Source of the DNA: Verrucomicrobiota bacterium
Lineage (GTDB): Bacteria > Verrucomicrobiota > Verrucomicrobiia > Verrucomicrobiales > DEV007
Assembly (NCBI GenBank): GCA_045046875.1
Contig: JASFYY010000086.1
Span: 1-42,581, forward strand
Direction: 5' to 3'
Length of the DNA stretch: 42,581 bases
The notes under the pieces are model-generated. The model was not told where the DNA came from, searched no databases, and was given only the letters and a program-made list of their open reading frames with translations. The stretch's first letter is position 1. Each line of letters opens with the position of its first letter. The position numbers and the translations under genes were made by a program. Below, piece after piece: positions 3,219 through 32,226 of this stretch.

Positions 3219-3228
3219 CGAGCGGGTT

Positions 3229-4305: not shown

Positions 4306-4396
4306 GGGGAGAGTTTATCGCCTGTTCGCTGGAAGTCTCTTAAAAAAATAGCAAAACAGGATCCCCGGTCATGTTATTTGAGTTTTGTTGATTCCT

Positions 4397-4423
4397 CGCA
4401 TTTTGGGGTATCTATTAATTGCC
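4397..4423 (+). repeat. 27-bp intergenic repeat, copy 1 (CGCATTTTGGGGTATCTATTAATTGCC)
   Basis: Identical 27-mer at 8633-8659. Confidence 0.9.
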
Positions 4424-4526
4424 ACGGCCCTTATGTTCTGGGAGCCAGCGATACTTAGCTTGTGCTAGGTTGGTAGAAAATGCTCGAACACGAGGCGCAG
4501 GAGATATTACAGAAGTTGTGAGCAGG

Positions 4527-5695: not shown

Positions 5696-8569
5696 ATGGG
5701 AGAAACGGAAAACAAGCAGTCAGAGCAGATCGAGGGAGCGGGGAAGTCTGAGGGGAAAAACAAGTGGCGCGGGCGATTGAGGAAATTGCTGGTATTGGTA
5801 TTGGCTCTGGGGCTGATTGCTGCGGGTGTGGGTTATTTTGGGGGAAATTGGTTGATTGTCAAAACTGAGAAGTTAGTGGTGGCGACCTTGGCGCAAAAAG
5901 GGGTGTATCTGGGTTATGATGAAAGTTCCCGGGAGCCATTACGAGGAATGGTGTTTGAAAACCTGGCGGTTTACAGCAGTGAGAAGAGGGATGTGCCGCT
6001 GTTGGTGATCAGTGATATTGCTATTTTTCCGAGTCTCAGACATTGGCTGATGGAAGGGGGAATCTCGGTGCGGGTCACTTTGCATGATTCCGAGATCAGG
6101 ATGTTGGTCGAGGGCAAGGAGGTGGAAAAGGTCGAGAACGTGACTGCGCGGATCAAGGCGAGCATGGGAGGGCTGCAGATGGAAAGGATGTCTGCGCTGA
6201 TGAATGGTGTGGATTATCATCTGACGGGAGGGGTGAATTTCGGGAGTAGGAAGGGCAAGGGAGGAGAAGCGGTGGAGGACAAGGCTGTGGACAAGGCTGT
6301 GGACAAGGTGAAAAAGGGACCGCTGATCGATTTTGCTTTTTGGGAAAAATTTGCCCATTGGATAGAGGTCGATTCAAAAGGTGGGGAGGTGAAGATACGG
6401 GGTGAGTTTGACATCGATACCGGGGATTTGGCGGCGATGACGGTGAAGGCGGATTTTTCGGGTGATTCGTTTGGCTGGCATGGCTTGGATTTTGACCATT
6501 TGCGGGCGCAGGTTGACTACATCGCGAAGGACAAGCTGATCGATGTGACGGCACTGGATGTGTTGAGCAAAGAGGGCAAGATGAATGGCGACTTCAGTTA
6601 TCACTTGGCGAATAAGGTTCTGGAAGTCGGCAAACTGGATGGACAGACGGATGTTTTGACTTTGATCAATAATTATCTAGGGAAGCCGCTGGTGAATGAT
6701 GAGGTGTTTGTGATGGTGAAACCTCCTCATTTGGGGTTAAGCGGGATTTTGGATTTCAGTGATTTGATAAAAAGCGATATGAAGGTCGAGTTTTTGCCGG
6801 CCGACGAGGTGGTGGTGAAGGTGGCAGGGGAATTGATTTCGATGAAAAAATTGTCTGGAGCGGTGGTTTTTTCAGATGGGAGAGTGAGTGTGGTGCAACC
6901 GGAAGTGTTTGCCAAAATGAACGAAGGGGAATTTCATTTGAGTGGTTATCTTCAGTTGTTGTCGGAGGAATCTGGTCAGGAAAATGAGATAAGTGCTGAG
7001 CTCTCGCTGGCGGGCAAATCGATAGTTTGGAAGGGGCTGGTATTGGATCATGCAAAATCTAAAGTGATTTTTTCCGGGCGGGATCAATCGGTGATTTTTA
7101 AGGGCTTGGATGTGGCTCACCAAGGCAAACCGTTCGGCGGGGATCTCCATTATAGGATCGCGGATAAAACTTTGGAAATGGTCAAGATGGAGAGCCAGAT
7201 TGATTTTTTGCAACTGACCAATGATTTGTTGGCTGGAGGCAGCAGTGGAAAACGCCCGGAGGGGGCGTTGATACAAGCTCCGCATTTACAGGTGAATGGC
7301 CTGGTGGATTTTGGGGATTTGAACAAGAGTGATGTGAAAGTAAAATTTCTCAATCAGCGGGATGTGGTGGTGGAGGTCGGGGGACGGAGGATCGAAATGA
7401 AAGCGCTGAAGGGGGAGCTTGCCTTTAAGGGCGGAGCGGTGAGCACGGTGGAACCGGGTCTGGTTGCACGAATGGCGGACGGGGGCATTTCGCTTAGCGG
7501 CAGGCTGGAGGTGATGGGTGGGAACAAAGCTTATCAGGCGGCGTTGAAATTGGAGGATGTTTCCCTGGATGAACTGAAGGCGTTGGCTAGTGCACAAGGT
7601 AAAGAGAAAGACGACGTTAAGGTGGTGAATAACGAGGCGGTGAAGCAGGTCGAAGAAGGTGAAAAAGAAGAAGCTCAAGACGAAGGGGAGGACGCGACAA
7701 AAAAGCAGGTCGCGCAAGAGGAGGTGAAAAAAGAGGTTGGGGAAGGGTCGAAGGATGAAGACAAGACCGACGAGGGGAAAAAGGTGGTGGAAAAAAGTGA
7801 TGGCAACAAAGAGCCTTTGCAGGGACGCTTGTTTTTTGAATTTGATGGCAGCGGGGATGCCGGGACACCGCTCAGGCAAGGTAAGGGTCTGTTGAGGATT
7901 GATGAAGCCCAGTTTTATGCCATGCCGATGTTTGGAACTTTTTTTGATACGTTTAACAAAGTGATTCCGGCTTTTGGTCGACGCGAGGATGGCGAGACGC
8001 ATGGTACCCAGAAGCTGACGGGAACGTATCTAATAGAAGATGCGAAGATCAGGTCGGAAGACTTGCGTATCCGGGGGAATTTGAGCCAGGTCGAAGTGAA
8101 GGTGTCTTATGATGTGGCGAAGGATCATGCGGATATTGATGGTAAGATCGAGCTCACTGGAGCGGTGGGTGTGGTGACCACTTTAGCGAGCAATCTTTTG
8201 GAGATCGAGGGCAAGGGGCCGATGAGAAATCTGAAGTGGGGGCTGAAAAACTTAAGTGCAAGCGGCTTGGTTAAAGGCGGGGTGAAGGGGGTGGGGAAAA
8301 CCGGTGAGGGAGTGATCAAGGCTGGAGGTGCTACGGTGAAGGGGGCCGCTGCGATGACGAGCAAGGGCGCAGAAAAGATGATTGAAGGAGCCGGTAAAGT
8401 AGGGGAAGGGTTGATGAAGGCGCTGCCTTTTGGTATAGGTAAGAAGGGCAAGAAGGAGAAAAAAACCGCCGGGGCCGAGGCTGAGGGGGAAGATTTTAAG
8501 GCTGGCAAGGAGGGGGAAGCGGATAAAAAAAGCGAGCCGGAAAAAGTGATTCCCGTTCCAAAAAAATAG
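5696..8569 (+). CDS. AsmA-like (repeating beta-groove) protein with N-terminal membrane anchor
   Basis: 957 aa with a single N-terminal TM, a beta-rich body containing an internal ~185-aa duplication, an AsmA-like C-terminal region, and charged low-complexity linkers. Confidence 0.7.
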   Translation: MGETENKQSEQIEGAGKSEGKNKWRGRLRKLLVLVLALGLIAAGVGYFGGNWLIVKTEKLVVATLAQKGVYLGYDESSREPLRGMVFENLAVYSSEKRDVPLLVISDIAIFPSLRHWLMEGGISVRVTLHDSEIRMLVEGKEVEKVENVTARIKASMGGLQMERMSALMNGVDYHLTGGVNFGSRKGKGGEAVEDKAVDKAVDKVKKGPLIDFAFWEKFAHWIEVDSKGGEVKIRGEFDIDTGDLAAMTVKADFSGDSFGWHGLDFDHLRAQVDYIAKDKLIDVTALDVLSKEGKMNGDFSYHLANKVLEVGKLDGQTDVLTLINNYLGKPLVNDEVFVMVKPPHLGLSGILDFSDLIKSDMKVEFLPADEVVVKVAGELISMKKLSGAVVFSDGRVSVVQPEVFAKMNEGEFHLSGYLQLLSEESGQENEISAELSLAGKSIVWKGLVLDHAKSKVIFSGRDQSVIFKGLDVAHQGKPFGGDLHYRIADKTLEMVKMESQIDFLQLTNDLLAGGSSGKRPEGALIQAPHLQVNGLVDFGDLNKSDVKVKFLNQRDVVVEVGGRRIEMKALKGELAFKGGAVSTVEPGLVARMADGGISLSGRLEVMGGNKAYQAALKLEDVSLDELKALASAQGKEKDDVKVVNNEAVKQVEEGEKEEAQDEGEDATKKQVAQEEVKKEVGEGSKDEDKTDEGKKVVEKSDGNKEPLQGRLFFEFDGSGDAGTPLRQGKGLLRIDEAQFYAMPMFGTFFDTFNKVIPAFGRREDGETHGTQKLTGTYLIEDAKIRSEDLRIRGNLSQVEVKVSYDVAKDHADIDGKIELTGAVGVVTTLASNLLEIEGKGPMRNLKWGLKNLSASGLVKGGVKGVGKTGEGVIKAGGATVKGAAAMTSKGAEKMIEGAGKVGEGLMKALPFGIGKKGKKEKKTAGAEAEGEDFKAGKEGEADKKSEPEKVIPVPKK
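6277..6308 (+). repeat. In-frame 12-bp tandem repeat (GGACAAGGCTGT x2.7) encoding DKAV repeats
   Basis: Directly visible in the sequence. Confidence 0.85.
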
Positions 8570-18436: not shown

Positions 18437-19387
18437 TCATTGCCTACAGTATTCGATTTTTTTTAACAGCTGGTAGGTTCTGAACATTTGTTCGAGGCCT
18501 TCAAGGTCATGGCTTTCGAAGTCCAGATTTGTTAGTTGGGCTTCGATATTACCGGCCATATAGGCAGCCACCAGACTATGCCCTGCTTTAAAATTTTCGT
18601 TTACCAGAAAAGGTAGATAAGCTGCGTTTAGCGATATTTTCACCAGCTCCGAGGCTTCGGCATAGGCTATGATGGCGCTGATGCTGTCATCTTCTTGCGG
18701 TTTTTCCTGGAAACTTTTGAGAGCATTCTTTATCTCCGGTCGAATTTCGGTGTCGGCGATCAATTGGCATAATGCGAGGCGAAACTCTTGTCGTTTTTTC
18801 CGCTGTTGCTCTAGCTGTTTTTTGTCAGCAGGGATTGAAAAAGAATGGCGAATTTTTATTAAATAATTGGCATAAATGGTGATGGCTACACTTGATTCCA
18901 GTTTATCTTGGTCAAATTTACCTGTTTTTGGATTGACCTGTCGGTAGCTCATCACTGACCGGATCATGGTGAGGTCGTCGGCATAATTGTAAATTTGAGC
19001 GCTGTCGCTGGTTTTGACCTCGCTGTAGGTTTTGCCCTTGGCGGCTAATTGAGTGATGACACTTAGAGTTTCTCCAATCTCATTGATGATCGCCTGATGA
19101 TTTTTGTCATCTTCGAGCTGTTTGTCGCCGCCTAGATAAAAGTAAACGTCGATTTTGGTATGGTCGTCAATGAAACGTAAGCTGATGTCATCTCCAGCAA
19201 AGTCGCTGTTGCCGTAGCGGCTTATCTCCCTTATTTTAAAATCGGCGATCTCACGTGGGAGGATCACGTCGGTTTGTTTATGATGAAAAGCCTTGTTCTG
19301 CTCTCGCCGGGAGAAATTTTGTTTTTCTGCCTGGCTCAAGCCAGTGGCGAGGATGCAAACGATGAAAATTAACCGAAGCGATGGCAT
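18437..19387 (-). CDS. Secreted hypothetical protein (C-terminus possibly frameshifted; see findings)
   Basis: 316-aa ORF with a signal peptide, 6 bp downstream of the Dabb gene. Confidence 0.7.
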   Translation of the reverse strand: MPSLRLIFIVCILATGLSQAEKQNFSRREQNKAFHHKQTDVILPREIADFKIREISRYGNSDFAGDDISLRFIDDHTKIDVYFYLGGDKQLEDDKNHQAIINEIGETLSVITQLAAKGKTYSEVKTSDSAQIYNYADDLTMIRSVMSYRQVNPKTGKFDQDKLESSVAITIYANYLIKIRHSFSIPADKKQLEQQRKKRQEFRLALCQLIADTEIRPEIKNALKSFQEKPQEDDSISAIIAYAEASELVKISLNAAYLPFLVNENFKAGHSLVAAYMAGNIEAQLTNLDFESHDLEGLEQMFRTYQLLKKIEYCRQ

Positions 19388-19807: not shown

Positions 19808-20710
19808 GTGGATTACAGTGCAGGGGTTGTGAAAGAGGAGAATATCAGAGAAGAGTGCAAGGAATCAACCAGAGAAAAACTCTGGAGGATTATTTTTCTT
19901 TCTGATACGCCGGCGGGTAAAAGCTTCGATGTGTGGTTGCTGTGGTTGATCGGTGCCAGTGTGCTGGTGGTGATGCTGGAGACGGTGGAAAGTCTGGAGA
20001 GCAAGTATAAGGGTTTGTTTAAATTTCTAGAATGGTGCTTCACCATTTTGTTTACGATCGAATACGGATTGCGCATTTGGATAGTCAGACGCAAAAGGCG
20101 TTATATTTTCAGCTTTTTCGGGATGATCGATTTGCTTTCGATTTTACCCTCTTATCTGGAACTTTTGTTGGTGGGCACGCATTATTTCACCGTGATCCGG
20201 ATTTTGCGCTTGTTGAGGATGTTCCGGGTATTGAAAATGGCGCGTCACATGAGCGAGGCCAACATTTTGATGAATGCCTTGGCAGCCAGTCGGGCTAAAA
20301 TCGCAGTGTTTCTGTTTGGGGTGTTGTCATTGGTGACCTTGGAGGGGACGCTGATGTATTTCCTTGAGAATGAGTTGAACCCTCAATTTTCGAGTATCCC
20401 GGAATCGATGTATTGGGGGATTGTGACGGTGACTACGGTTGGTTATGGGAATATCGTGCCAGTCACGGTGTTGGGAAAGATTGTCGCTTCGTTCATGATG
20501 ATGACGGGTTTTGCCATCATCGCGGTGCCAACGGGGATTGTGAGTGCCGAGCTGCATAAGGAGTTATCGAGTATTCGCATGGATACGCGCGAGTGTCAGG
20601 AATGCGGTTTGCTGGGGCATGACCCCAGCGCGCGCTATTGTAAAAGCTGCGGCACGGAATTGCAGAATGGTAGAGGCGTAAAGGGGGATAGGCCGATGAA
20701 TCAGGTGTGA
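19808..20710 (+). CDS. Voltage-gated-type potassium channel (ion transport protein) with C-terminal zinc ribbon
   Basis: S4-like RILRLLRMFRVLK, pore TVTTVGYGN, C-terminal CxxC...H...CxxC. Exact start codon uncertain. Confidence 0.88.
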   Translation: MDYSAGVVKEENIREECKESTREKLWRIIFLSDTPAGKSFDVWLLWLIGASVLVVMLETVESLESKYKGLFKFLEWCFTILFTIEYGLRIWIVRRKRRYIFSFFGMIDLLSILPSYLELLLVGTHYFTVIRILRLLRMFRVLKMARHMSEANILMNALAASRAKIAVFLFGVLSLVTLEGTLMYFLENELNPQFSSIPESMYWGIVTVTTVGYGNIVPVTVLGKIVASFMMMTGFAIIAVPTGIVSAELHKELSSIRMDTRECQECGLLGHDPSARYCKSCGTELQNGRGVKGDRPMNQV

Positions 20711-20762
20711 TGTATGGTTCTTTGTTCTTTGTGGGGGGATTCCCTGGAAAGTAGAGTATTGC

Positions 20763-20790
20763 TTGAAATCTGATAATCAGATTGTATGAT
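20763..20790 (+). promoter_or_regulatory. Sigma70-like promoter with operator palindrome for the TA module
   Basis: TTGAAA (20763-68), 16-bp spacer, TATGAT (20785-90). A perfect inverted repeat AATCTGAT-A-ATCAGATT (20767-20783) lies between them. Confidence 0.65.
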
Positions 20791-20796
20791 TAGAGC

Positions 20797-21072
20797 ATGG
20801 TTAATCGAGAAATGACGGTAACAGAAGCTTCTCGTCACTTTGCGGACTTGGTGAATCGCACTTATTACAAAGGGGAATCGACTATTTTGTTTCGTTCGAG
20901 AGAGGCGGTAGCTAAAATGGTTCCGCTTGGCGGGGGGAGTGAACTTGGCCGGGATTGGCTGGCGCGGTGGCGTTTGATGCCTCATCTGGAAGTGGCCGAT
21001 GCGGATGATTTTGCCTGTTCGGTGGAAGAGTCTCGGGAGAAAATTATCGATCCTATATCACCTTGGGATTGA
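20797..21072 (+). CDS. Phd/YefM-family antitoxin
   Basis: MTVTEASRHFADLVNR...GESTIL; acidic C-terminus ending PWD that overlaps the PIN gene start. Confidence 0.8.
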   Translation: MVNREMTVTEASRHFADLVNRTYYKGESTILFRSREAVAKMVPLGGGSELGRDWLARWRLMPHLEVADADDFACSVEESREKIIDPISPWD

Positions 21073-21472
21073 TTCTTGATAGCTCGGTGCTGATCAGCGC
21101 GGAAAGACGGCGTTTTGATATGCCGTCTTTTATTGAAGCTGAAGCGGCAATGGAGCCGGTGTATATCGCAGCCGTAACGGTCTCGGAGTTGTTGCATGGC
21201 GTTCATCGTGCGGGTGAAGTTTACCGTTGTCAGCGGCAGGCTTTTGTTGAAGCGGTGTTGAGAAATACTCCAATTTTGCCCTTCGATTTGATTTGCGCTA
21301 AAAATCACGCAAAACTGTGGGCGGATCTTGAAAGCGAAGAAAGACGGATAGGAGCTCTTGATATGCTGATTGCAGTAACCTGTCTGGCTTTTGGGCATCG
21401 TTTGGCCACTGTGAGTTTGAGCGAGTGGAGGGCTTGGAGCTGGCGAATGCTCGTAAGCATTTGGTGGGGTGA
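21063..21472 (+). pseudogene. PIN-domain (VapC-like) toxin, apparently frameshifted near the 3' end
   Basis: Motifs ILDSSVLI, SEL, DMLIA. After LAT (21410) the canonical EFERVEGL tail lies in another frame (21413-21472). Confidence 0.7.
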
Positions 21473-21597
21473 TGTTACTTAGAATTAATAGTTTGTTATT
21501 TGAGAGCTGGGCTTATATATCACAAGGTTTTGCGAGTTTGAAAAGTCGGGGTGTTCAGATCTCTTGGGCACTTTTCGAATAAGTGATTTTTTAAAAC

Positions 21598-22812
21598 ATG
21601 TTCAGGATAATATTAAAATCGATTCGGATTGTGGTGGCAATAGCCCTTATCACGGTGTCGCTGTGGGCCTTACTGTTGCCGCCCGCATTTCCCTACAGTG
21701 CGCATGCGATTGTGAATGCCAAGGCGGTAGCTATCAAGGCAGGAGATCGGGGGAATATAGTTTATATTCCAACGACACGAACGATGCTATTGCCTTCGGG
21801 CGGGACGATCGCCAGAGTGACACGCGACTTGTCTAAATTGCATCGTGACCTTGAAGAACGAAATTTCACTAAACTGAAGATTGAAGGGCGGATCAAAAAT
21901 CTGGATGAAGCGAATGACGAGCTTCAGCGGAAACGTCTTCTGGCAAAAAGTGAACTGGACAAAAAACGTATCAGTTCGGGGAAGCTTCTGAGGCAATCGA
22001 TAGTCGAAATAGAAGAAAAGGTGAAGCTTTATGCGGCTGATTTGGTTGAGAAAAAAGCCGACCAGGAAAGAGTAAAACCCCTGTTTGATGATGGTATTGT
22101 CACGGCAGCCCAATGGTCTGAGACCAGACAGTTGAAAATCATGGCGGAAAAATCTTTGAAGGCTGCCGAAGCGGAATTAACGACTATTAAGAACCGCTTG
22201 GAATCTTTTGAGCTGGGCGATGATGTAAAGGGTGGTATGGCGGCAAAAGTGGAGGCGTATGAACAGGGGGCTGGTAATCTTGAGGCTCAGCGAATGGAGT
22301 TGCGAGCTGAACTGGATGAAATAAAAAAGCAAATGGAAGCCGCCCGTAAATATAATAAAGCGGACAGTAGTTACACTTTGATAACTCCGATCAAAGGAGT
22401 GGTTTGGCATCGTTATGCGGTGGATGGAGAGCCTGTGACAGAGGATCAAGTGGTGGCGGAAATCGCAGATACGGAGTCTTTGTTTGTGGAGGCATATTTT
22501 CGGCGAGATTTCTTGAACCAAGTAGCGATAGGAGATCAGGCGACTATTTATTTATTGGGGGATCTTCGTTTTGTTAAAGGAAGGGTGGCGGACATTCAGG
22601 TGCAGGAGCATAGCGCTCGAGTGGCCAAGGTTATCAATACGGTTGAGTTGGATCGTTCATTGTTGAATGTAAAAATTGAGATTGAGGGTGAGGGGTTTGA
22701 GTCTGAAGATATCGGGCAACTCGCCAAGGTTCTTGTTTCCAATGGTCAGCCCGGACTAGGTGAGCGTGTGCAAATTTGGTTAAGTTTGCTGCTCCGCAGT
22801 CATAAAGACTAA
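21598..22812 (+). CDS. HlyD-family membrane fusion/periplasmic adaptor protein (BgsB-like)
   Basis: N-terminal TM, AIVNA, long coiled coil, TPIKGVV barrel-sandwich motif, beta-barrel region. TAATG overlap with the GT2 gene. Confidence 0.8.
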   Translation: MFRIILKSIRIVVAIALITVSLWALLLPPAFPYSAHAIVNAKAVAIKAGDRGNIVYIPTTRTMLLPSGGTIARVTRDLSKLHRDLEERNFTKLKIEGRIKNLDEANDELQRKRLLAKSELDKKRISSGKLLRQSIVEIEEKVKLYAADLVEKKADQERVKPLFDDGIVTAAQWSETRQLKIMAEKSLKAAEAELTTIKNRLESFELGDDVKGGMAAKVEAYEQGAGNLEAQRMELRAELDEIKKQMEAARKYNKADSSYTLITPIKGVVWHRYAVDGEPVTEDQVVAEIADTESLFVEAYFRRDFLNQVAIGDQATIYLLGDLRFVKGRVADIQVQEHSARVAKVINTVELDRSLLNVKIEIEGEGFESEDIGQLAKVLVSNGQPGLGERVQIWLSLLLRSHKD

Positions 22813-24500
22813 TGATTTCTGCTCAATATCCGGAGGTGCTGGCGACGATCCTGCTTTTTGCAGGTTTGTGGTTGATATCGCCCATGCTTTCCTGGTCAAA
22901 GGTTTCTGTCAGATTGGTGGTGGTCTCCCTTTTTGTGCTGTTGAACGCGCGTTACGTGTGGTGGCGCTTGGGAGCCACCCTAGTACCGGTTTCAGCTGAT
23001 CCGGAAGCTTTGTGGACGTGGTTGTTTGTCGTGCTGGAATTGTTGGCCACTGTGGTGTTGACCTGGCATTTCATTGTATTGATCAGACCTAGCAATCGAT
23101 CTCCTGAAGCTGATTTGGCCGAACGTGCGCTGCGCGCGCAGGACGAGGTGAAAGGGGTTGATATTTTTATTCCGACTTATAATGAACCCAAGGATATTCT
23201 TCGGCGGACGATTAAAGCAGCGTGCGAGATGGATTATCCGAATTTCAAGGTATGGGTATTGGATGACGGCGACCGGGATTGGCTGAGGGCTCTTTGCAAG
23301 GAGTTGCAGGTTTCTTATCTGTTACGTACCGAACGTAAGGGTTTCAAGGCCGGTAATATGAATCATGCTTTGAAAAACACACAGAATCCGTTGATTTGCG
23401 TGGTGGATGCGGATTTTGCCTTGGCTCCCAATTTCCTCTGGCGGACGGTTGGCTTGCTGGAGGATCCTCGAATTGGTATTGTGCAGACACCCCAGATTTT
23501 CATTAATCCAGATGCCATTCAGTATAATCTATATGGTGAGAAGGCGTGGCCGGAAGCGCAGTGCATGTTCACTGATGTGATGCAGTCAGGGCGTGATACC
23601 TGGGACAATGCTTTTTGTTATGGCACGGGTTTCGTCATCAAACGAGATTGCTTGGATCTGGTGGGTGGATTTCCGGAGGCCACCATCACCGAGGACTTGC
23701 ACACTTCCTACCTACTGGTATCACATGGTTTTAAAACTCGCTTTCTCAATGAGCCTTTGAGCTTTGGTTTGGCTGCGCAGGATGTGGAGGGTTTTGTCAC
23801 CCAGCGAACTCGCTGGTGCATAGGCACGCTGCAGTGTTTTGCAGTTGAGGATGGTGTTCTACGGGCTAGGCGCCTTTCGGTGATTGACCGCTTGTTCTTT
23901 TTGGATCCCGTGCTGTATCACATAGGCACGGTTTGGAAGTTTTGTGTGTTGATCGCTCCGGCTCTTTATTGGTGGTTTGGAATTTCGCCTTTTCACTCGG
24001 ATTTGGGGCATTTGTTGGTGGTATTTGCTCCGCGTATGTTGCTTAGTATTTATGGGTTTTATTGGTTGAGCAATCGTAAAACCATTCCATTGGTGTCTGA
24101 ACTGGATCGGGTGGTCAGCATTTTCAGTTTGGTGTCAGGTATGTTTAAATTACTTGTTAACCCCTTCCGGCAAACATTCTCTACCACAACCAAAGAATTG
24201 GATTCCACTAAAATACAAATTCATTGGCCGCTGATGCGCCCGCATCTGATTCTCATCGTATTGACGGTTGCAGGGATGGCATATCAGTATTTTGGCGCGC
24301 AGGGAGAGCAGTTTTTCATGCGCCCTAACGTAGGCTTGATGATTTCTCTGACGGTGTATGTTTTATGGTTGTTGTTTTTTGCCTGCCTGGTCTGCGTGCA
24401 GCGGCCGATACCGAATGGGTTGTTGGATACGGTGGAAAGCGTGCGGCAAGGGCGTATCAGGACGACCATCAAGGTTCTATTAAAAAGAATATTCTTATGA
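22812..24500 (+). CDS. Processive GT2 polysaccharide synthase (cellulose-synthase-like, BgsA-like)
   Basis: Motifs DIFIPTYNE, LDDG, KAGN, DAD, QTPQ, FCYGT, TEDL, QRTRW. N- and C-terminal TM helices. Confidence 0.9.
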   Translation: MISAQYPEVLATILLFAGLWLISPMLSWSKVSVRLVVVSLFVLLNARYVWWRLGATLVPVSADPEALWTWLFVVLELLATVVLTWHFIVLIRPSNRSPEADLAERALRAQDEVKGVDIFIPTYNEPKDILRRTIKAACEMDYPNFKVWVLDDGDRDWLRALCKELQVSYLLRTERKGFKAGNMNHALKNTQNPLICVVDADFALAPNFLWRTVGLLEDPRIGIVQTPQIFINPDAIQYNLYGEKAWPEAQCMFTDVMQSGRDTWDNAFCYGTGFVIKRDCLDLVGGFPEATITEDLHTSYLLVSHGFKTRFLNEPLSFGLAAQDVEGFVTQRTRWCIGTLQCFAVEDGVLRARRLSVIDRLFFLDPVLYHIGTVWKFCVLIAPALYWWFGISPFHSDLGHLLVVFAPRMLLSIYGFYWLSNRKTIPLVSELDRVVSIFSLVSGMFKLLVNPFRQTFSTTTKELDSTKIQIHWPLMRPHLILIVLTVAGMAYQYFGAQGEQFFMRPNVGLMISLTVYVLWLLFFACLVCVQRPIPNGLLDTVESVRQGRIRTTIKVLLKRIFL

Positions 24501-25540
24501 AAAATAGTTGTGATTTTGTTCAAGTGCTTTTGATGATGGTGTTTATGCTTTTTCCTTTGATGGCAAATGCGCAATCTAATGAGGGGGATCAGCGTTCTTC
24601 AGTGCTTTTCATCGCAGGGCAGAGTCGGGAGGAATTCAGGGATTATCTGAGGGATGTTTCTAAAAAAGGGCAGCAGTGCCCTTTGCCAGGAGGGGCTTCT
24701 TTTTATACGGCTTTAAATTCATCCGGATTTACCGAGCCGCATTCCAATTTTCCGGGAGACAATCATCAGGATCTTGAGTATTTACAAATGGTGCAGGATC
24801 CGTTGGTTATTCAGATTGGTCTATGGATGTCACGCGAACAGCTTTATCAAACCATTGCCGGCGATCAGGATGCTCAAATCAAGCAAATGTTTGAATCTCT
24901 GAAAGCCTTGCAACGACCGGTTCTTCTGCGCATTGGTTATGAGTTTGACGGGCCGCATAATCGTTATCCACCAGCGGCTTATGTGCAAGCTTATCAGCGA
25001 ATAGCAAAAGTCATGAGGCGCGCGCGCGATATCATGTTGGTTTGGCATTCGTATGCGATGATTCCTACTTATCAGGACTATCCGGTGACTGACTGGTATC
25101 CAGGAGATGAATACGTTGATTGGATTGGGATCAGTGTTTTTCAGATTGGGGATGAGGGATTCCATGAAACACCCAATCGCGATAAGTTGTTGGCGATGGC
25201 GCGCGCTAAGGGGAAGCCGGTGGTGATAGGGGAAGCAAGTGCGATCCGTTACACCCATCGACAAAAAAAACTCACCGGAAAAGAATACTGGGATTATTGG
25301 TATAAACCCTATTTTGACTTGATCGAACAACACCCTGAAATCCGCGCAGCCACGATGATTCACGTTGATTGGGATAATCAGCAGCAGCACCGGGAACTTG
25401 ATTGGGGAGATTGTCGAATTGACCGTGACCCTTATGTGCTCAAACAATGGCAAAAGCAGTTGGGAAAAGCATACTGGTTGTCAGCTGATAAATCATTGTA
25501 TTCGCAGGTGCAAAAATTTGTGAAGAAGGTTGACAAATAA
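24497..25540 (+). CDS. Glycoside hydrolase family 26-like protein, secreted
   Basis: LRIGYEFD (acid/base Glu), WYPGDEYVDWIGISVF, KPVVIGEAS (nucleophile Glu). ATG 24497 overlaps the GT2 stop (ATGA). Signal peptide ends ANA. Confidence 0.85.
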   Translation: MKNSCDFVQVLLMMVFMLFPLMANAQSNEGDQRSSVLFIAGQSREEFRDYLRDVSKKGQQCPLPGGASFYTALNSSGFTEPHSNFPGDNHQDLEYLQMVQDPLVIQIGLWMSREQLYQTIAGDQDAQIKQMFESLKALQRPVLLRIGYEFDGPHNRYPPAAYVQAYQRIAKVMRRARDIMLVWHSYAMIPTYQDYPVTDWYPGDEYVDWIGISVFQIGDEGFHETPNRDKLLAMARAKGKPVVIGEASAIRYTHRQKKLTGKEYWDYWYKPYFDLIEQHPEIRAATMIHVDWDNQQQHRELDWGDCRIDRDPYVLKQWQKQLGKAYWLSADKSLYSQVQKFVKKVDK

Positions 25541-25634
25541 GGGGCAAAGGGATAATGAGGGATCGTGCAAGAACTTGGTGAGCAGTGTCCACAAAGTTTA
25601 TCTTACTTTTTCTCCTTTAAATATTCTATATCCA

Positions 25635-26990
25635 ATGAAAAATTTTTTTTCCAATTTAGTGGGATCAAGTTTCACATTACCTGTTGTCGGGACCTTGTTG
25701 ATCTCATCACTTAATGCGCAAGCAGGTGTTTTGCTCGATATTTACTCAGAGGTAATCGAATCGGCTCCGATTAAGCAGTCAGGCGATCTGTTGTCTCAAG
25801 CGGCTAAACAGAATGTCACCACCAAAAAGCGCAATTATTTGCCTCGTCTATCCTTTGATGCTCGGGAGCTTTGGGTGGATCAGGATATCACAGTGAACGA
25901 TTCGCTTGGATCGCGGGGAGCAAGGAGTGATTACGAAAATACGCGCCTTAACTTGGAACTGGATCAGCCATTGTATGATCCCACGATCAAATCTAAAATT
26001 GAAGTCGCTAGAGCTAAAGGGCGCCAGGTGGAATCACAAGCCCAGTTGATTGTTGAAGCGAAAACGCGCAGGTTGATTGAGCAATTTCTTGAGACGGCAA
26101 AGTTGCAGCGGCTGATATTGTCCACCAACCGTGTGGTCGGTCGGCTAGAAAAAGAGTTACAGGAAGTTTCTAAGAGAAAGGAGGCTAATGTGGCTACTGT
26201 CAGTGAAGTGCAGAATATACGCCTCGCTTTGGCTTCGGTGAAACGTGACCGGAGTAATTTTTCGCTGAATCGAAATTACGCTTTGGTAAGCATGGGGCCA
26301 AGTGGTCAAGCTCTCAGGAAAAAGCAATTGCAATGGAGGGAAAGCAACGGGCCGTCGTCTTGGGGGAAGTCTGCGGATGAGGAGAACGTGGCTCCCGAAG
26401 TGAAAAACTTGCGCGCTGAGGTTGAGGAATTCCATCACCAATCCCGCGAAGTGAAACGGCGCTCATGGCCTGTGCTAAAGTTGGTAGCTCGTTACGGCAT
26501 CGATAACGGGGGGAATCCGGAATTTGGTGGGCTTCGCACTGGAGACCGTGACCTGAACTATTTCGAGGGTGGCTTAGCCTTGCAGTGGAATATCTTTGAA
26601 CGAGGCATGAACAATTCCGAAGCCAAAGAGCTTGAGTTGAAAAAAGAGGCGAAAAAAGCTGAGTTGCAACAGATGATGGAAGATCGCGATCAACTGGCGA
26701 CTTATAGCAAAGATCTATTAAAGTACTCAAGAACCAGTATGAATGAATTTGAGAGTCTGATGAAGGAATACAAGGTTCTCAAAGATGCTTCAGCTCGCGC
26801 TTATGAAGCAGGTAAGGGTTCTTATATGGACTCAATCACTGCATACATGGCTTATGAAGCGGCTTTGAGGGATTGGACAAATGCTCAGCATGAGTTGTTG
26901 CGTCGCCGGATCACTTTTTATGCGCAGTCAACGGGTTGGGATAAGTCTTTGGTTCAGAAGGTGGACGGGATGTTTAAAGTAGCGAAGTAG
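25635..26990 (+). CDS. TolC-family outer membrane protein
   Basis: Signal peptide from ATG 25635. Two OEP repeats (YLPRLS...LDQPLYD; WPVLKL...LQWNIFERG) and a YEAGK helix motif. Confidence 0.8.
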   Translation: MKNFFSNLVGSSFTLPVVGTLLISSLNAQAGVLLDIYSEVIESAPIKQSGDLLSQAAKQNVTTKKRNYLPRLSFDARELWVDQDITVNDSLGSRGARSDYENTRLNLELDQPLYDPTIKSKIEVARAKGRQVESQAQLIVEAKTRRLIEQFLETAKLQRLILSTNRVVGRLEKELQEVSKRKEANVATVSEVQNIRLALASVKRDRSNFSLNRNYALVSMGPSGQALRKKQLQWRESNGPSSWGKSADEENVAPEVKNLRAEVEEFHHQSREVKRRSWPVLKLVARYGIDNGGNPEFGGLRTGDRDLNYFEGGLALQWNIFERGMNNSEAKELELKKEAKKAELQQMMEDRDQLATYSKDLLKYSRTSMNEFESLMKEYKVLKDASARAYEAGKGSYMDSITAYMAYEAALRDWTNAQHELLRRRITFYAQSTGWDKSLVQKVDGMFKVAK

Positions 26991-27019
26991 TGCGGTTGAT
27001 ATTGGGATTCCCCCGATTG

Positions 27020-27916
27020 CTACAAACCATGCCGATAAGCCAGCGGTGAGCATTGCATTTGTCTGCGGAACATGCGGTTGAAGTGGGAGAGGTCGTTGAA
27101 GCCGGAATTTTCGGCGATTTGAGTGACGGACTTCTGAGTGGTGGTGAGCTCGCGGCAGGCGTTGGCGATGCGGATCTCTGTTAGGAATGTGATGAAGGAG
27201 CGTCCGGTGCTGCGTTTGAAATGGCGCGAAAAGGTGGGGCGCGAGACGGGTACGGCGTCAAGGATGTCGGAGAGCTTCAGCGGTTCGGAGAAATGAGCAG
27301 AGATCATGGCGACGGCTGCGGCGATGGCGCGTTCGTGGGGGTCGCCAGGTTCGGGTAGGTGGAAGTCACTGGAAGCCAGGCTTTGTTTATCTTGTTCGGG
27401 TGCCAGAGCGAGGGTGTTGAGTATTTCCAGTAAGGTGGTAAAACGCGGCAGCGCGGCGAGCTGGGTGAGCTGGGGAAGTAGGTTCTGTACTGCGCTCGCG
27501 GTGTCGCCGGAAATATGCAGGCCGAGGCGGGCGGCTTGTCGCAGCGGTTGTAATATGGCGGAAATCTCGTCACCGCTTTGCCATACGGAGAGCGGACTTT
27601 CGGGGTCGAACTGGATGCAGTAACCGTGGCTGGCTCCGTCCATGCGCCAATAGTGAGGCAGGTGACGATCGATGATCACCAGGTCGCCATCGGTGAAATT
27701 TTCGAGGTGGTTGCCGATCAGGCGCAGGCCGTGGCCTTGGCTGACACAGGTGATTTCCATCTCGGAATGGCGATGCCAGAGTGCCCCCGAGCCTTCAACC
27801 GGGGTGGATTGTCTGGCCTCGGTGTGCAGCCGCACTCGTTCGATGCATTGGTTCCAGGTCAACAAACGGAAAGACTGACCGGCGAGGGGTTTGATGGTTT
27901 CTACTGCGACGGCCAT
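27020..27916 (-). CDS. AraC-family transcriptional regulator (cupin + HTH)
   Basis: WHRHSEMEI and LPHYW cupin motifs; FSRHFKR...SGFNDLSHFNRMF...SPLAYR. Confidence 0.92.
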   Translation of the reverse strand: MAVAVETIKPLAGQSFRLLTWNQCIERVRLHTEARQSTPVEGSGALWHRHSEMEITCVSQGHGLRLIGNHLENFTDGDLVIIDRHLPHYWRMDGASHGYCIQFDPESPLSVWQSGDEISAILQPLRQAARLGLHISGDTASAVQNLLPQLTQLAALPRFTTLLEILNTLALAPEQDKQSLASSDFHLPEPGDPHERAIAAAVAMISAHFSEPLKLSDILDAVPVSRPTFSRHFKRSTGRSFITFLTEIRIANACRELTTTQKSVTQIAENSGFNDLSHFNRMFRRQMQCSPLAYRHGL

Positions 27917-28110
27917 GGGGGAGAGGGAGTGAGGAGGAAGAAGTTAGGAGATAGAATAAAATACCACTTTTTGAGTAAAATGAAGGGAGTGGACTGATAT
28001 TAGGGGAAGATTTTGAGATAATCCAACAAAAAAATGAGTCAAGGGGCGTAGCGGCCAAGGCTAGGGACGGGCAGAATGGGGGCACATTAATCAAAGCAGC
28101 ATTTAATATT

Positions 28111-29151
28111 ATGAAAGAGCAGACTGAATACCGATTTTCTTTTGGGCCGTGGAACATCAGTGAGGGGGAGGACCCTTTTGGACCGCAGGTGAGGAAACCC
28201 GGCACTTTTGAGGCGAAGTTGGATTTGTATCGTCCACTGGGATTTGAGGGGGTGCAGTTGCACGATGATGATGTGGTGGAGGGCATTGATGAGCTGACTG
28301 CTGAGCAGGCTTTGAAACGCGCAGCGGAGGTGAAGGTCTTATTGGATGATCGTGGATTGACTCCGGAATTTGTCGCTCCGCGTTTGTGGTTTGCGCCGCA
28401 GACGGTGGACGGGGGACTGACGGCCAACTCTGAATCTGATCGCACATATGCGATGGATCGTTGCAAGCGTACGATTGATATTGCGCGTGAGGTGGGCACC
28501 AGGAATATTGTGATGTGGTTTGCACGTGAGGGTTCTTATTGCCGTGAGAGCAAAAATGCCAAAGTCGCTTATGATCGTATCTTGGACGGACTGAATACGA
28601 TGCTCGATTACGATAAGGAGATTGAAATTTGGATTGAGCCCAAGCCAAACGAACCGACCGACCAGGCGTACGTGCCGACGATCGGTCATACCGTGGCATT
28701 GGCTTATGCTTCGAATGATCCGAAGCGGGTGAAGGGCTTGATCGAAAGTGCGCATGCAATTTTGGCAGGTCTGGATCCGGGGGATGAAATGGCTTTTGCG
28801 ATGGCGCACGATATGTTGGGCAGTGTGCATTTGAATGACCAGAACGGTTTGAAATACGATCAGGATAAAAATTTCGGTGCGGCAAATTTGCGCAGTGCTT
28901 TTAACCAGGTGCGGGTTTTGGAGCAAAATGGTTACGGCAAAAATGGCGAGTTTGTAGGTTTGGATATCAAGGTGATGCGGACCCAGCAGGGGGATTTGGT
29001 GACCAAACATTTGGAAACCAGTCGTGAGATTTTCCTCGCTTTGGTGGAGAAGGTTCGCTCTTTGGATTCGGCCAAAGAGCAGGCTTTTATTGATGCGCGT
29101 GACTATGAAGGTTTGGAGCGTTATTTGCTGTTACACCTGATGGGATTTTGA
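28111..29151 (+). CDS. Xylose isomerase-like sugar isomerase (class I-like)
   Basis: Motifs HDDD, AREG, IEPKPNEP, ESAH, HLNDQ..KYDQD, LDIK. Substrate not certain. Confidence 0.8.
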   Translation: MKEQTEYRFSFGPWNISEGEDPFGPQVRKPGTFEAKLDLYRPLGFEGVQLHDDDVVEGIDELTAEQALKRAAEVKVLLDDRGLTPEFVAPRLWFAPQTVDGGLTANSESDRTYAMDRCKRTIDIAREVGTRNIVMWFAREGSYCRESKNAKVAYDRILDGLNTMLDYDKEIEIWIEPKPNEPTDQAYVPTIGHTVALAYASNDPKRVKGLIESAHAILAGLDPGDEMAFAMAHDMLGSVHLNDQNGLKYDQDKNFGAANLRSAFNQVRVLEQNGYGKNGEFVGLDIKVMRTQQGDLVTKHLETSREIFLALVEKVRSLDSAKEQAFIDARDYEGLERYLLLHLMGF

Positions 29152-29232
29152 TGCGCAACCAAATATTGTTCTCAGAGAGAGATTTTGGCTTTGCCTTCAG
29201 GTGAAGTTGAGGTCAATTTGACTGAACAAGTG

Positions 29233-30615
29233 ATGATTCAGGATTCTATTAACAAACTAAGAGAACTGTTGGGTGAGAAGAATGTTCTCACCGAAAAGGA
29301 GGATTTGATCCCCTACGGTTTTGATGGCACGGCAGCATTGAAAAATGCTGCCGTTTGCGTGGTTTTTCCTGAGAACACGGAGCAGGTCGCCGAGGTGATG
29401 AAATTGGCCGCAGCGGAGAAGATTCCTGTGGTCACACGGGGATCGGGCACCGGGCTTTCCGGAGGCAGCATTCCGGTGGAAGGAGGAATCGTGCTTTGTC
29501 TGTTGAAGCTGAAGCAGATTCTAGAGCTGGACACTGCCAATTTGACGATGCTGTGTGAGTGCGGCGTGATCACTAAAGAGATCGACGAAGTGGCTGGAGC
29601 CAAGGGTTTGTTTTATCCACCTGATCCGGGCTCGATCAAGGTATCGACGATTGGTGGCAATGTGGCGAATAATTCGGGTGGCTTGCGTGGTTTGAAATAC
29701 GGGGTGACGAGGGATTATGTGATGGGCATGGAGGTGGTGACCGCTGCGGGGGAGGTGATCTGGTTGGGTTCGAAGTGTGTGAAGGATGTGGCGGGTTATA
29801 CGCTTAAGGATTTGTTCATTGGTTCGGAAGGCACGCTGGGCGTGGTGACCAAGGTATTACTGAAACTGTTGCCTCGTCCGCAAGCTCGCAAAACTTTGTT
29901 GGCGACTTATGATAGCATGGATGCGGCGGCACAGACGGTGGCGGCGATTATCGCTCGCCATGTGATTCCGTGCACCTTGGAATTTTTGGATCGCAAGACT
30001 TGTCAGTGTGTGGAGGATTTTGCCAAGGTCGGTTTGCCGACCGATGCGGCTTCGGTTTTGTTGATGGAGACCGACGGGCATCCGGTGGTGGTCGAAGAGG
30101 AGGCGAAGTTGATGGAGGAAATCGCTCGTGAGCACGGTGCGATGTCGGTGGAGGTTGCCAAGGATGAGGAGCAGGCGGTGAAACTGGCTTCGGCCCGGCG
30201 TAGTGCTTTTGCCGCTTTGGCGAGGATCCGCCCGACGACGATTTTGGAGGATGTGACGGTGCCGCGCAGTGAGCTGCCGAAGATGGTGAAATTTGTCAAC
30301 GAGGTGGCGAAGAAGTATCAATTGGAAATCGCGACCTTTGGGCACATGGGGGATGGTAATTTGCATCCCACTTTTTTGACCAACGAAAAGGATGAAGAGG
30401 AGATGGAGCGGGTCGAAAAAGCGATGGCTGAGATTTTCAAAGAAGCTTTGGATTTGAAGGGGACGATCACCGGGGAGCATGGGGTGGGGCTGGCGAAGAA
30501 GGAATTTTTGTCGGACCAATTCCAGGATGGAAGTTATGAAATGTTGAAGAAGGTGAAGGTGGCGCTGGATCCAGATGTGATTTTGAACCCGGGAAAAATA
30601 TTTGATGTGGATTAG
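29233..30615 (+). CDS. glcD: Glycolate oxidase subunit GlcD-like FAD-linked oxidase
   Basis: Motifs RGSGTGLSGG, YPPDPGS, TIGGNVA, LKYGVT, GSEGTLG, GHMGDGNLH, GEHGVG, LNPGK. Probable start ATG 29233. Confidence 0.85.
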   Translation: MIQDSINKLRELLGEKNVLTEKEDLIPYGFDGTAALKNAAVCVVFPENTEQVAEVMKLAAAEKIPVVTRGSGTGLSGGSIPVEGGIVLCLLKLKQILELDTANLTMLCECGVITKEIDEVAGAKGLFYPPDPGSIKVSTIGGNVANNSGGLRGLKYGVTRDYVMGMEVVTAAGEVIWLGSKCVKDVAGYTLKDLFIGSEGTLGVVTKVLLKLLPRPQARKTLLATYDSMDAAAQTVAAIIARHVIPCTLEFLDRKTCQCVEDFAKVGLPTDAASVLLMETDGHPVVVEEEAKLMEEIAREHGAMSVEVAKDEEQAVKLASARRSAFAALARIRPTTILEDVTVPRSELPKMVKFVNEVAKKYQLEIATFGHMGDGNLHPTFLTNEKDEEEMERVEKAMAEIFKEALDLKGTITGEHGVGLAKKEFLSDQFQDGSYEMLKKVKVALDPDVILNPGKIFDVD

Positions 30616-30635
30616 GATAGGGATTTGGAGAGAGA

Positions 30636-30804
30636 GAACCACGAATGGACACGAAGAAACACGAATGGGAGAATTTGAAATTTAAAATGGGAGCTCTTGC
30701 TATGAAAAAAGGGAACCACTAATAGACACGAAGAAACACGAATGGGGAGAATTTGAAATTTAGGATTTGAGATTTGAAATGGGAGCCCTTGCTGTGAAGG
30801 AAGA
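30636..30804. repeat. Two imperfect tandem copies (~77 and ~92 bp) of a composite micro-repeat unit
   Basis: GAACCAC.AAT.GACACGAAGAAACACGAATGGG...ATTTGAA...GGGAGC.CTTGCT.TGAA starts at 30636 and again at 30713. Copy 2 has two extra heptamers. Confidence 0.85.
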
Positions 30805-30921
30805 GAACTCACATGGGCCGAGACGGTGGGTGTGGCTCGAAGATAGAAGGGATTAAAGATGATGGAATTTGGATCTACGGCCTATAGCCTAAATTACTAC
30901 AGACTAACAAGCTAACTCCAT

Positions 30922-32226
30922 ATGACTTCTTATCTTAAAGATCTTGATTATTCGGTGGTGCAGCAGTGCATGCATTGTGGGATGTGTTTGCCTACTTGTC
31001 CGACTTATAGGGAGACGGGGATGGAGAAGAATAGTCCCCGCGGACGTATTGCGTTGATGCGGGCGGTGGCGGATGAGGAGCTGGAGGTGACGAAGGCTTT
31101 TGCGGATGAGATGTATTATTGTCTCGGTTGTTTGGCGTGCACCACGGCTTGTCCAGCAGGGGTGAATTATCCGGAGTTGTTTGAAATGGCGCGGGCAGAG
31201 GTGGAGGAGGCCGGGGTATTGGATCATCCTCAGCGGCGCTTTTGGAGGTGGTTGAGCCTGAAACTGATTTTTACCCGGCCGCGCTTGTTGCGTTTGATTG
31301 GTCGGATGCTGCGGCTTTACCAGGTGAGTGGGATGGAGGGTTTGGTGAGGAAGAGTGGGGTGTTATTTATTTTGCCTAAAAACCTGCGTGAACTGGAGCC
31401 GACCACTCCTAAGATTGGTCCGGCTTTTTCCGATGATTTGATCGCCGAGGTGGAGGAGCCGCAAGGGGGTGAAAGCAAATATCGGGTGGGCCTGCTGACC
31501 GGCTGTGTGCAGGATTTGATTCTGGCGGATGTGAATCGTGATACGGCGGATGTGCTGTTGCAGAATGGGTGCACGGTGGTGACGCTTAGGAATCAGGGCT
31601 GCTGTGGATCGCTGCACGGGCACAATGGTGCGGTGGACTTGGCCAAGCAGATGGCAAGACAGCATTTGGATCGTTGGGATTTGGATTGTTTGGATGCGAT
31701 TATCAGCAATGCGGCAGGTTGTGGTTCGCATTTGAAACATTACGGACCGCTGTTGAAAGATGATGCGGATTACTGCGAGCGAGCGCGGCAGTGGGATGAA
31801 AAAGCTAAGGATATCAACGAGTGGTTGGTGGAGATTGATTTTCGCAAGCCTGCAGGAGATGCAGAGGAAGCGACTCAGGTGACTTATCATGAGGCCTGTC
31901 ATCTTTGTCATGGGCAGAAGATCACTCAGCAGCCACGGGCGATTTTGAATAGCATCCCGGGTTTGAATTTAAATGAACTGAAGGACTCTACCTTGTGTTG
32001 TGGCAGTGCGGGTATCTATAATATCACTCAGCCAGAGCAAGCGGGAAAACTGCAGGACGAGAAAGTGGCCAATATTGTGGACACTTGCGCGACTGTGACT
32101 GCGGTGGCTAATCCTGGTTGTCACTTGCAGATTGAAAACGGTCTGAAGGACTGCGGAGCTTCGCAGGTGAGGGTGGCGCATCCGATCACGCTGTTGGCGG
32201 AGGCTTATCGGGCGGAGGGGGGGTAA
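30922..32226 (+). CDS. glcF: Glycolate oxidase iron-sulfur subunit GlcF
   Basis: CMHCGMCLPTCP and CLGCLACTTACP 4Fe-4S motifs; two CCG domains; ANPGC. Confidence 0.88.
   Translation: MTSYLKDLDYSVVQQCMHCGMCLPTCPTYRETGMEKNSPRGRIALMRAVADEELEVTKAFADEMYYCLGCLACTTACPAGVNYPELFEMARAEVEEAGVLDHPQRRFWRWLSLKLIFTRPRLLRLIGRMLRLYQVSGMEGLVRKSGVLFILPKNLRELEPTTPKIGPAFSDDLIAEVEEPQGGESKYRVGLLTGCVQDLILADVNRDTADVLLQNGCTVVTLRNQGCCGSLHGHNGAVDLAKQMARQHLDRWDLDCLDAIISNAAGCGSHLKHYGPLLKDDADYCERARQWDEKAKDINEWLVEIDFRKPAGDAEEATQVTYHEACHLCHGQKITQQPRAILNSIPGLNLNELKDSTLCCGSAGIYNITQPEQAGKLQDEKVANIVDTCATVTAVANPGCHLQIENGLKDCGASQVRVAHPITLLAEAYRAEGG

Follow-up and report, generated by a model that had tools for sequence, protein, structure and literature searches.

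A conserved, mobile module of polysaccharide synthase, membrane fusion protein and TolC with an accessory GH26 hydrolase in a Verrucomicrobiota bacterium

Direct export of a polysaccharide through a tunnel formed by a membrane fusion protein (MFP) and TolC is described as proposed and unproven (PMC13438883, PMC12430437, PMC8892547), partly because TolC in the known systems is unlinked and pleiotropic. In Sinorhizobium meliloti, TolC is needed for mixed-linkage β-glucan (MLG); a BgsA-BgsB-TolC complex was proposed, and an indirect role of TolC was left open (PMC13438883). For cyanobacteria, XcsAB-TolC with the endoglucanase XcsC was put forward as a tripartite exporter and presented as unvalidated (PMC12430437, PMC8892547), and for the curdlan operon crdASC of Agrobacterium the function of CrdA is stated as unknown (PMC10819609); further background is found in PMC10374906. 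Here we analyze a locus encoding an HlyD-type MFP, a processive glycosyltransferase of family 2 (GT2), a GH26 hydrolase and a TolC-family outer-membrane factor, located in a stretch of 42,581 nucleotides from a Verrucomicrobiota bacterium (assembly GCA_045046875.1, contig JASFYY010000086.1), which as a whole is called the window. A first-pass annotation of this DNA had presented the locus as the best candidate for a new system in the window; it is not a new kind of system, since a synthase-MFP-TolC tunnel with a hydrolase had already been proposed for cyanobacterial cellulose and S. meliloti MLG.

Conservation of the module and its predicted export route

The four genes form a real, conserved and mobile module, and their recurrence in other genomes and in metagenomes argues that the set is not a product of chance. 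To describe its composition, 29 loci with a GT2 of the same short clade (see below) were counted (L001-L009, L011-L025, L129, L132-L135), excluding L130, which is L005 again, and with L002 and L009 being two contigs of one genome. An MFP gene is adjacent to the GT2 gene in 25 of the 29, a TolC gene in 17 and a GH26 gene in 10, and all four genes stand together in 8; the four loci without an adjacent MFP gene are truncated by contig ends on the relevant side. The set that had been read as one unit is thus conserved together, with one correction: the MFP-GT2 pairing stands, and the GH26 is an accessory to the module and not a core part of it. Gene order varies (TolC-MFP-GT2-GH26 in L017, GT2-MFP-TolC in L024 and L129), flanking genes change between loci, and L003, in a genome that gave no Uxs orthologue, has two short-clade GT2 copies around an MFP gene (2875-4566 and 6001-7695).

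Identities of the partner proteins track those of the GT2, with Spearman coefficients of 0.88 for the MFP (11 loci), 0.86 for TolC (9 loci) and 0.79 for GH26 (8 loci) and permutation p values of 0.0004, 0.0002 and 0.005, respectively, to which related loci do not contribute independently (L004, L005 and L015 hardly differ from one another, and L007 and L014 are closely similar). The locus of G428, a genome from the window's own family, is at 61% identity and thus farther away than several loci from other families at 68-72%, which fits transfer of the module as a unit. The module occurs rarely. The short clade was found in one of 401 genomes of the phylum (the window's own), in 5 of 61 relatives (the window counted among them), and in 5 of 351 and 1 of 251 genomes in two surveys that each count the centre genome itself; its size was estimated from word-indexed searches, by which members may be missed. 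Names given by the sources include Arenicella and Granulicella, so that the setting in bacteria of the Planctomycetes-Verrucomicrobia-Chlamydiae (PVC) group, highlighted in the first-pass annotation, is right for the host, a member of the Verrucomicrobiota, and wrong as a restriction. Among cultured species, the sources assign clade proteins to Synoicihabitans lomoniglobus, Arenicella xantha, Granulicella rosea and Sulfuriroseicoccus oceanibius. For the Granulicella-type subclade, neighborhoods could be read on short contigs only (L018, L020, L022, L025).

The MFP has one N-terminal hydrophobic anchor (residues 9-27) and a conserved C-terminal segment (alignment A3), and at 22% identity to S. 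meliloti BgsB (E 3e-7) it is the counterpart of BgsB, XcsB and CrdA. In the lists of open reading frames (ORFs) of the loci, no gene for an ABC, RND or MFS pump recurs next to it. The host genome has 29 matches to Pfam OEP, and a tblastn search of this genome with the TolC of the locus at 1e-4 gave no second match. Because none of the 29 resembles it by tblastn, calling this TolC "dedicated" was fair, and the protein belongs to a locus-specific clade: among 7995 proteins scored with its profile, 13 reached E<=1e-20, five of which are indirectly linked to a genome with a short-clade GT2 and one more to a linked GH26. A synthase-coupled tunnel is, as a matter of judgement, highly probable.

All four genes lie side by side on the plus strand, as judged by Pfam and ORF reading (Table 1), in an operon of 5.4 kb with 94 nt between the end of the GH26 gene and the ATG of the TolC gene. 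Several earlier readings hold on inspection: the first three genes are coupled by overlapping stop and start codons, the GT2 has the complete D,D,D,QxxRW set (DDG 151, DAD 199, QTPQ 225, TED 293, QRTRW 331, followed by an FxxTxK gating loop at 456), and the GH26 keeps both catalytic glutamates, E149 (RIGYEF) and E246 (IGEA), which align with E147 and E243 of AlXyn26A. Hits in promoter and terminator scans of the locus were about as many as expected by chance (8 vs 7.0 and 5 vs 6.2). Two DNA runs aligned to the locus contained strain-level copies only, and a hydrothermal vent metagenome (run X1, compared with window positions 20500-28000) contains the full locus at ~96% identity on two long contigs.

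Table 1 Features of the locus in the window
Feature	Position	Strand	Length	Basis
HlyD-type MFP	21598..22812	+	404 aa	Pfam HlyD_D23 4.7e-9, HlyD_3 2.4e-8
Processive GT2 polysaccharide synthase	22812..24500	+	562 aa	Pfam GT2, motifs
GH26 hydrolase	24497..25540	+	347 aa	Pfam Glyco_hydro_26
TolC-family outer-membrane factor	25635..26990	+	451 aa	Pfam OEP 4.8e-27
TAATG stop/start overlap, MFP-GT2	22810..22814	+		Sequence
ATGA start/stop overlap, GT2-GH26	24497..24500	+		Sequence

Synthase lineage and c-di-GMP control

By its sequence, the synthase belongs to a new, separate lineage beside CrdS and BgsA. It is 39% identical to S. meliloti BgsA, 32% to a CrdS orthologue and 29% to Escherichia coli BcsA, and its AlphaFold2 model (pLDDT 90) has template modelling (TM) scores of 0.83-0.85 to BcsA and ends ~35 residues past the last membrane helix. 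Among the best 120 of 1090 homologues, 72 full-length proteins (540-592 aa) and two fragments are found at 42-100% identity, followed after a clear break by mostly 630-670-aa proteins at 35-42%. A scan of viral sequences gave one GT2 match at 34%. Trees were built with IQ-TREE from subsets of 47, 31 and 22 of 186 rows, using as references S. meliloti BgsA (L010, verified by R599 and H615), E. coli BcsA and the plasmid-encoded CrdS orthologue L136, in which all 8 of the residues published for CrdS stand at their reported numbers.

The short GT2s (~560 aa) form a single clade with support of 100/100. In the 31-row and 47-row trees this clade groups with BgsA, CrdS and other MFP-linked clades at 100/99, with BcsA outside, and in the 31-row tree the short clade and the BgsA clade are separate (100/100 and 100/98). 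Approximately unbiased (AU) tests rejected a topology holding the short clade with BcsA (p-AU 0.0003), in keeping with the first-pass annotation, which had set the locus apart from canonical cellulose operons; sister positions to BgsA (p-AU 0.053) or to CrdS (p-AU 0.25) were not rejected. The likeness to BgsB/BgsA drawn in that annotation therefore applies to the MFP-GT2 pairing and not to orthology with BgsA, from which the synthase is separated by its clade and by the lack of a c-di-GMP domain.

At the alignment columns that discriminate CrdS from BgsA, the short clade is CrdS-like in 11, BgsA-like in 9 and like neither in 9. Its specific residues at the channel entry are T/S254, N266, Y270, F362, D365, R408 and R433, of which T/S254 (in place of F/Y), Y270 (in place of C/V), D365, R408 and R433 are unlike all three glucan synthase groups. 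Position 254 corresponds to Tyr302 of Rhodobacter sphaeroides BcsA, described as bonding the acceptor glucose (PMC6821405).

The synthase is likely independent of cyclic di-GMP (c-di-GMP), judging from what follows its membrane domain and from the genomes. The C-terminal tail of BgsA (139 aa; R599, H615) is reported to bind c-di-GMP and to be required for activity (PMC5567048). After position 530, the short clade has 28-63 residues vs 116-138 for the clades of CrdS and BgsA and 118-138 in the comparison with BgsA, Pfam found no match to PilZ in the GT2, and the C-BgsA domain is also absent. The autoinhibitory glutamate (E371 in R. sphaeroides) is glutamine in 55 of 55 members of the window's subclade. 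GGDEF searches gave no match in the host genome, which is 94.7% complete, or in the single-contig genome G444, and a GGDEF gene lies within ~3 kb in four of five long loci of BgsA type from this phylum. It is the missing tail, together with this distribution of GGDEF genes, that makes independence likely. In G428, the short-clade module coexists with a synthase of the BcsA type that has an adjoining GGDEF gene (contigs C2 and C9; L117, L122).

Full-length bgsBA-like pairs were observed in other lineages of the phylum (L102-L106, in G166, G349, G388, G262 and G264), four of the five having adjoining GGDEF genes; in one (L105) a distant GH26 gene lies ~2 kb downstream.

The GH26 hydrolase and candidate products

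The GH26, which the first-pass annotation had left among mannanases, lichenases and β-1,3-xylanases, falls by sequence and structural model firmly into the branch of β-1,3- and mixed-linkage xylanases. It is nearer to Xyl4 and AlXyn26A than to the lichenase or the mannanases by sequence, profile and fold: a PDB search returned Xyl4 at 8e-31 and AlXyn26A at 5e-29, profile scores were 1e-52 and 3e-51 for the xylanases vs 1e-8 for the lichenase CtLic26A (more than 40 orders of magnitude apart), and fold comparison gave TM scores of 0.83 (Xyl4) and 0.75 for the xylanases vs 0.65 for the lichenase. The ESM Atlas confirmed the GH26 family and nothing beyond. The start codon is backed by orthologues and a signal peptide is predicted (N-terminal hydrophobic).

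Close GH26 homologues (>~50% identity) form a clade with support of 99, and 17 of the 50 closest were traced indirectly to genomes with short-clade GT2s, vs 1 of 56 distant ones; none was traced to long GT2s. Eight distant GH26 loci (29-36% identity; from 401 class genomes), read over 8-16 kb in six cases and 3-4 kb in two, contained no GT2, MFP or TolC match (0/8), and their neighborhoods gave no substrate clue. A plasmid search for the GH26 gave no match. Its nearest named outside relatives are GH26s from Flagellimonas and Winogradskyella, genera listed with homologues of the β-1,3-xylanase Xyn26A in the supplements of PMC12125979, a match at genus level only.

When a hydrolase is encoded together with a synthase-dependent system, its substrate is usually the polymer of that system. 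The placement of the GH26 in the xylanase branch and its divergence in step with the synthase point to a β-1,3-linked product that contains xylose; for the sugar, the genus-level match of the GH26 and the channel-entry residues unlike those of the glucan synthases also speak in favor. A β-1,3 linkage is also suggested by the position of the clade with CrdS and BgsA and by the fact that both types of locus hydrolase act on chains containing β-1,3 bonds. That the GT2 makes a xylose-containing glycan with β-1,3 linkages is close to an even call, and one of judgement rather than computation. For the module as a whole, we tentatively favor a linear glycan of this kind, polymerized by the GT2, exported via MFP and TolC and probably free of c-di-GMP control; it would be a β-1,3-xylan, a mixed-linkage xylan or a glucoxylan. 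More narrowly, and at somewhat less than even chances, the short clade may consist of single-subunit, c-di-GMP-independent β-1,3-xylan or glucoxylan synthases that use a pentose donor and have their own MFP-TolC export. In such a machine the GT2 would take UDP-xylose from the unlinked Uxs of the host and the chain would thread the synthase's own membrane channel, as in BcsA. The GT2, rather than an ABC or RND pump, would be the docking partner of the MFP, which would bridge to the co-encoded TolC. The exported GH26 would clip or clear stalled or mislocalized polymer, and such a role would account for its absence from some loci; output would be set by transcription or substrate supply.

The host has a Uxs1 orthologue (68%, contig C153) unlinked to the operon, as do the other tested carriers except G402. 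Because Uxs occurs in 180 of the 201 class genomes, its presence shows only that xylan synthesis is possible, and it was dropped as evidence for xylan. Titles and abstracts yielded no relevant literature on a bacterial or GT2 xylan synthase, with subscription papers thinly covered.

Several observations weigh against a xylose-containing product made and exported in this way. The characterized relatives BcsA, CrdS and BgsA all use UDP-glucose; no uxs gene was found in the short-clade loci examined; and G402, which has all four genes, gave no Uxs orthologue (best match 31%; the completeness of this genome is not stated). The GH26 is 24-25% identical to Xyl4 and AlXyn26A, below the validated cut-off of 35% for xylanase assignment given in PMC12125979, it has His where AlXyn26A has W152, and Xyl4 itself is reported to tolerate glucose at subsites -3, -1 and +1 (PMC13351767). 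Moreover, the GH26 gene is plainly missing from 7 of the 29 loci (L004, L005, L011, L013, L015, L129, L132), and whole-genome searches of G403 and G444 found none. In G444, the locus (L129) runs GT2-MFP-TolC and is followed 34 nt on by a GH16 laminarinase-like gene (5989-6834), and the synthases of this subclade also have T254, Y270, D365, R408 and R433. The change at 254 and 270 may be a neutral aromatic swap, one subclade having F254 with H/V270. With regard to control, four of five other carriers tested hold one or two GGDEF genes.

Many of these points favor another product of the same c-di-GMP-independent synthase-MFP-TolC machine, namely a glucan with β-1,3 or mixed linkages, for which UDP-glucose would be the donor and to which the GH26 sub-branch would have shifted. 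The closest characterized synthases are CrdS and BgsA, four of eight CrdS channel residues are kept, G444 has its GH16 gene, uxs is missing from the loci and was not found in G402, and Xyl4 accepts glucose at several subsites (PMC13351767). This reading is plausible but somewhat less likely than the xylose-containing product, in view of the distance of the window GH26 from the GH26 lichenase (1e-8 vs 1e-52; TM 0.65 vs 0.83) and of the replacement of K270, H374, W422 and H442 of CrdS as well as of the aromatic residue at 254. In addition, GH26 occurs in 10 loci and GH16 in one, and this single case is set against GH16s of similar kind in a same-genus genome without the cluster.

It is improbable that the GT2 makes a glycan while MFP and TolC have an indirect part, with the GH26 or some other protein as their cargo, or that the GH26 is a catabolic xylanase traveling with the locus. 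An indirect role of TolC is considered possible in S. meliloti (PMC13438883), which also bears on the export step favored here, but the MFP has no conserved pump gene beside it in the ORF lists, and MFP and TolC persist where the GH26 has been lost; the N-terminal hydrophobic signal of the GH26 suggests that it would use Sec, which counts against its export by MFP and TolC. For a catabolic GH26 speaks a xylose-isomerase-like gene 1.1 kb downstream in the window, a neighbor that is absent in the 95%-identical L002. A cellulose synthase system of unusual type, comparable to cyanobacterial XcsABC-TolC, would have the same architecture, and BcsA is the best solved-structure match of the GT2 and many clade members are named cellulose synthase by their sources, but this is very unlikely given the rejected BcsA grouping (p-AU 0.0003), F202, Q228 and FCYG where BcsA has H, H and FFCG, the lack of BcsB, BcsC and BcsZ matches in the genome (tblastn, E. 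coli queries, 1e-5) and locus hydrolases that are not cellulases.

If the favored xylose-containing product is correct, some bacteria make a polymer hitherto ascribed to seaweed cell walls, and β-1,3-xylan would add a new activity to GT2 and open a way to make a polymer whose present source is algae. Should the product prove to be a glucan, the clade is still an uncharacterized synthase lineage beside CrdS and BgsA. With its own TolC and no c-di-GMP domain, the module makes the question of MFP-TolC export addressable with one construct.

Other genes surround the locus. Just upstream of the MFP gene, positions 20797-21482 hold a small ORF and a PIN-domain gene, a putative VapBC-like pair. Contigs from two runs leave out 364-365 nt at 20714-21078 and have 10 additional letters at 21410, and the window's PIN end may therefore be frameshifted. 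Downstream, positions 27020-32226 contain genes for an AraC regulator and a xylose-isomerase-like protein (below the equivalog cut-off) and glcD-like and glcF-like genes, possibly a pentose catabolic unit; its absence in L002 led us to exclude the xylose-isomerase-like gene from the system. Two ORFs have no Pfam or NCBIfam match (5696-8569, plus strand, 957 aa; 18437-19387, minus strand, 316 aa). In an unrelated genome (L154:13138-15999), a neighboring ORF with SpvB, TcdB-midN and FG-GAP matches was seen.

Comparison with known systems

The locus resembles BgsBA, which makes an alternating β-1,3/1,4-glucan, as described (PMC13438883, PMC5567048) in having an MFP gene directly 5' of a cellulose-synthase-like GT2 gene of the same superclade, but its GT2 lies outside the BgsA clade and lacks the 139-aa c-di-GMP-binding tail, and in contrast to the bicistronic bgsBA its own TolC and a GH26 are encoded in the operon. 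With Agrobacterium crdASC (PMC6821405, PMC10819609) the GT2 shares Q228, Q250, F253, E430 and the CxGTxF motif, corresponding to four kept residues among the CrdS channel positions Q237, Q259, F262, K270, H374, W422, E439 and H442. It differs from CrdS in the four replaced residues named above, in having no C-terminal domain and in its separate clade, and from crdASC in co-encoding TolC and GH26; among the four proteins there was no significant match to a CrdC-like partner, the search for CrdC covering these four. As an observation on that system, a crdASC-like operon on an Agrobacterium plasmid (L136:2255-7186, NZ_CP123840.1) encodes a CrdA counterpart of 484 aa with an HlyD_3 match just over the cut-off, and curdlan may also be exported by an MFP-TolC route.

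Unlike Bcs systems, the locus has no PilZ domain, its GT2 falls outside the BcsA clade, and a tblastn search of the genome at 1e-5 gave no BcsB, BcsC or BcsZ match. Compared by the description of XcsA, it shares with XcsABC-TolC the combination of synthase, HlyD-like MFP, hydrolase and TolC, whereas there XcsA is a PilZ-bearing cellulose synthase, XcsC an endoglucanase and TolC unlinked (PMC12430437). The ApsS/ApsE system likewise combines a GT2 with a GH26 (ApsE, 26% identical to the window GH26) and has a pentose-containing polymer (PMC7902896), but ApsS is only distantly related (21%), and the system gave no match to MFP or TolC and has its own uxs1 and uxe.

The GH26 is similar to Xyl4 (2DDX) and AlXyn26A (7XJR) in fold, in both catalytic glutamates and, by eye, in equivalents of Q43, Y67, Y146, F215, W285 and W299. 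Like Xyl4 it has a short loop 1, unlike the mixed-linkage xylanases, in which a long loop 1 with D108 forms a tunnel (PMC10470212). Apart from the substituted W152, it does not keep F294 and W296, and it stands in a biosynthetic operon whereas Xyl4 and AlXyn26A are catabolic. Taken together, the architecture is not new, as BgsBA with TolC and cyanobacterial XcsAB-TolC have been published; what is new is the synthase clade.

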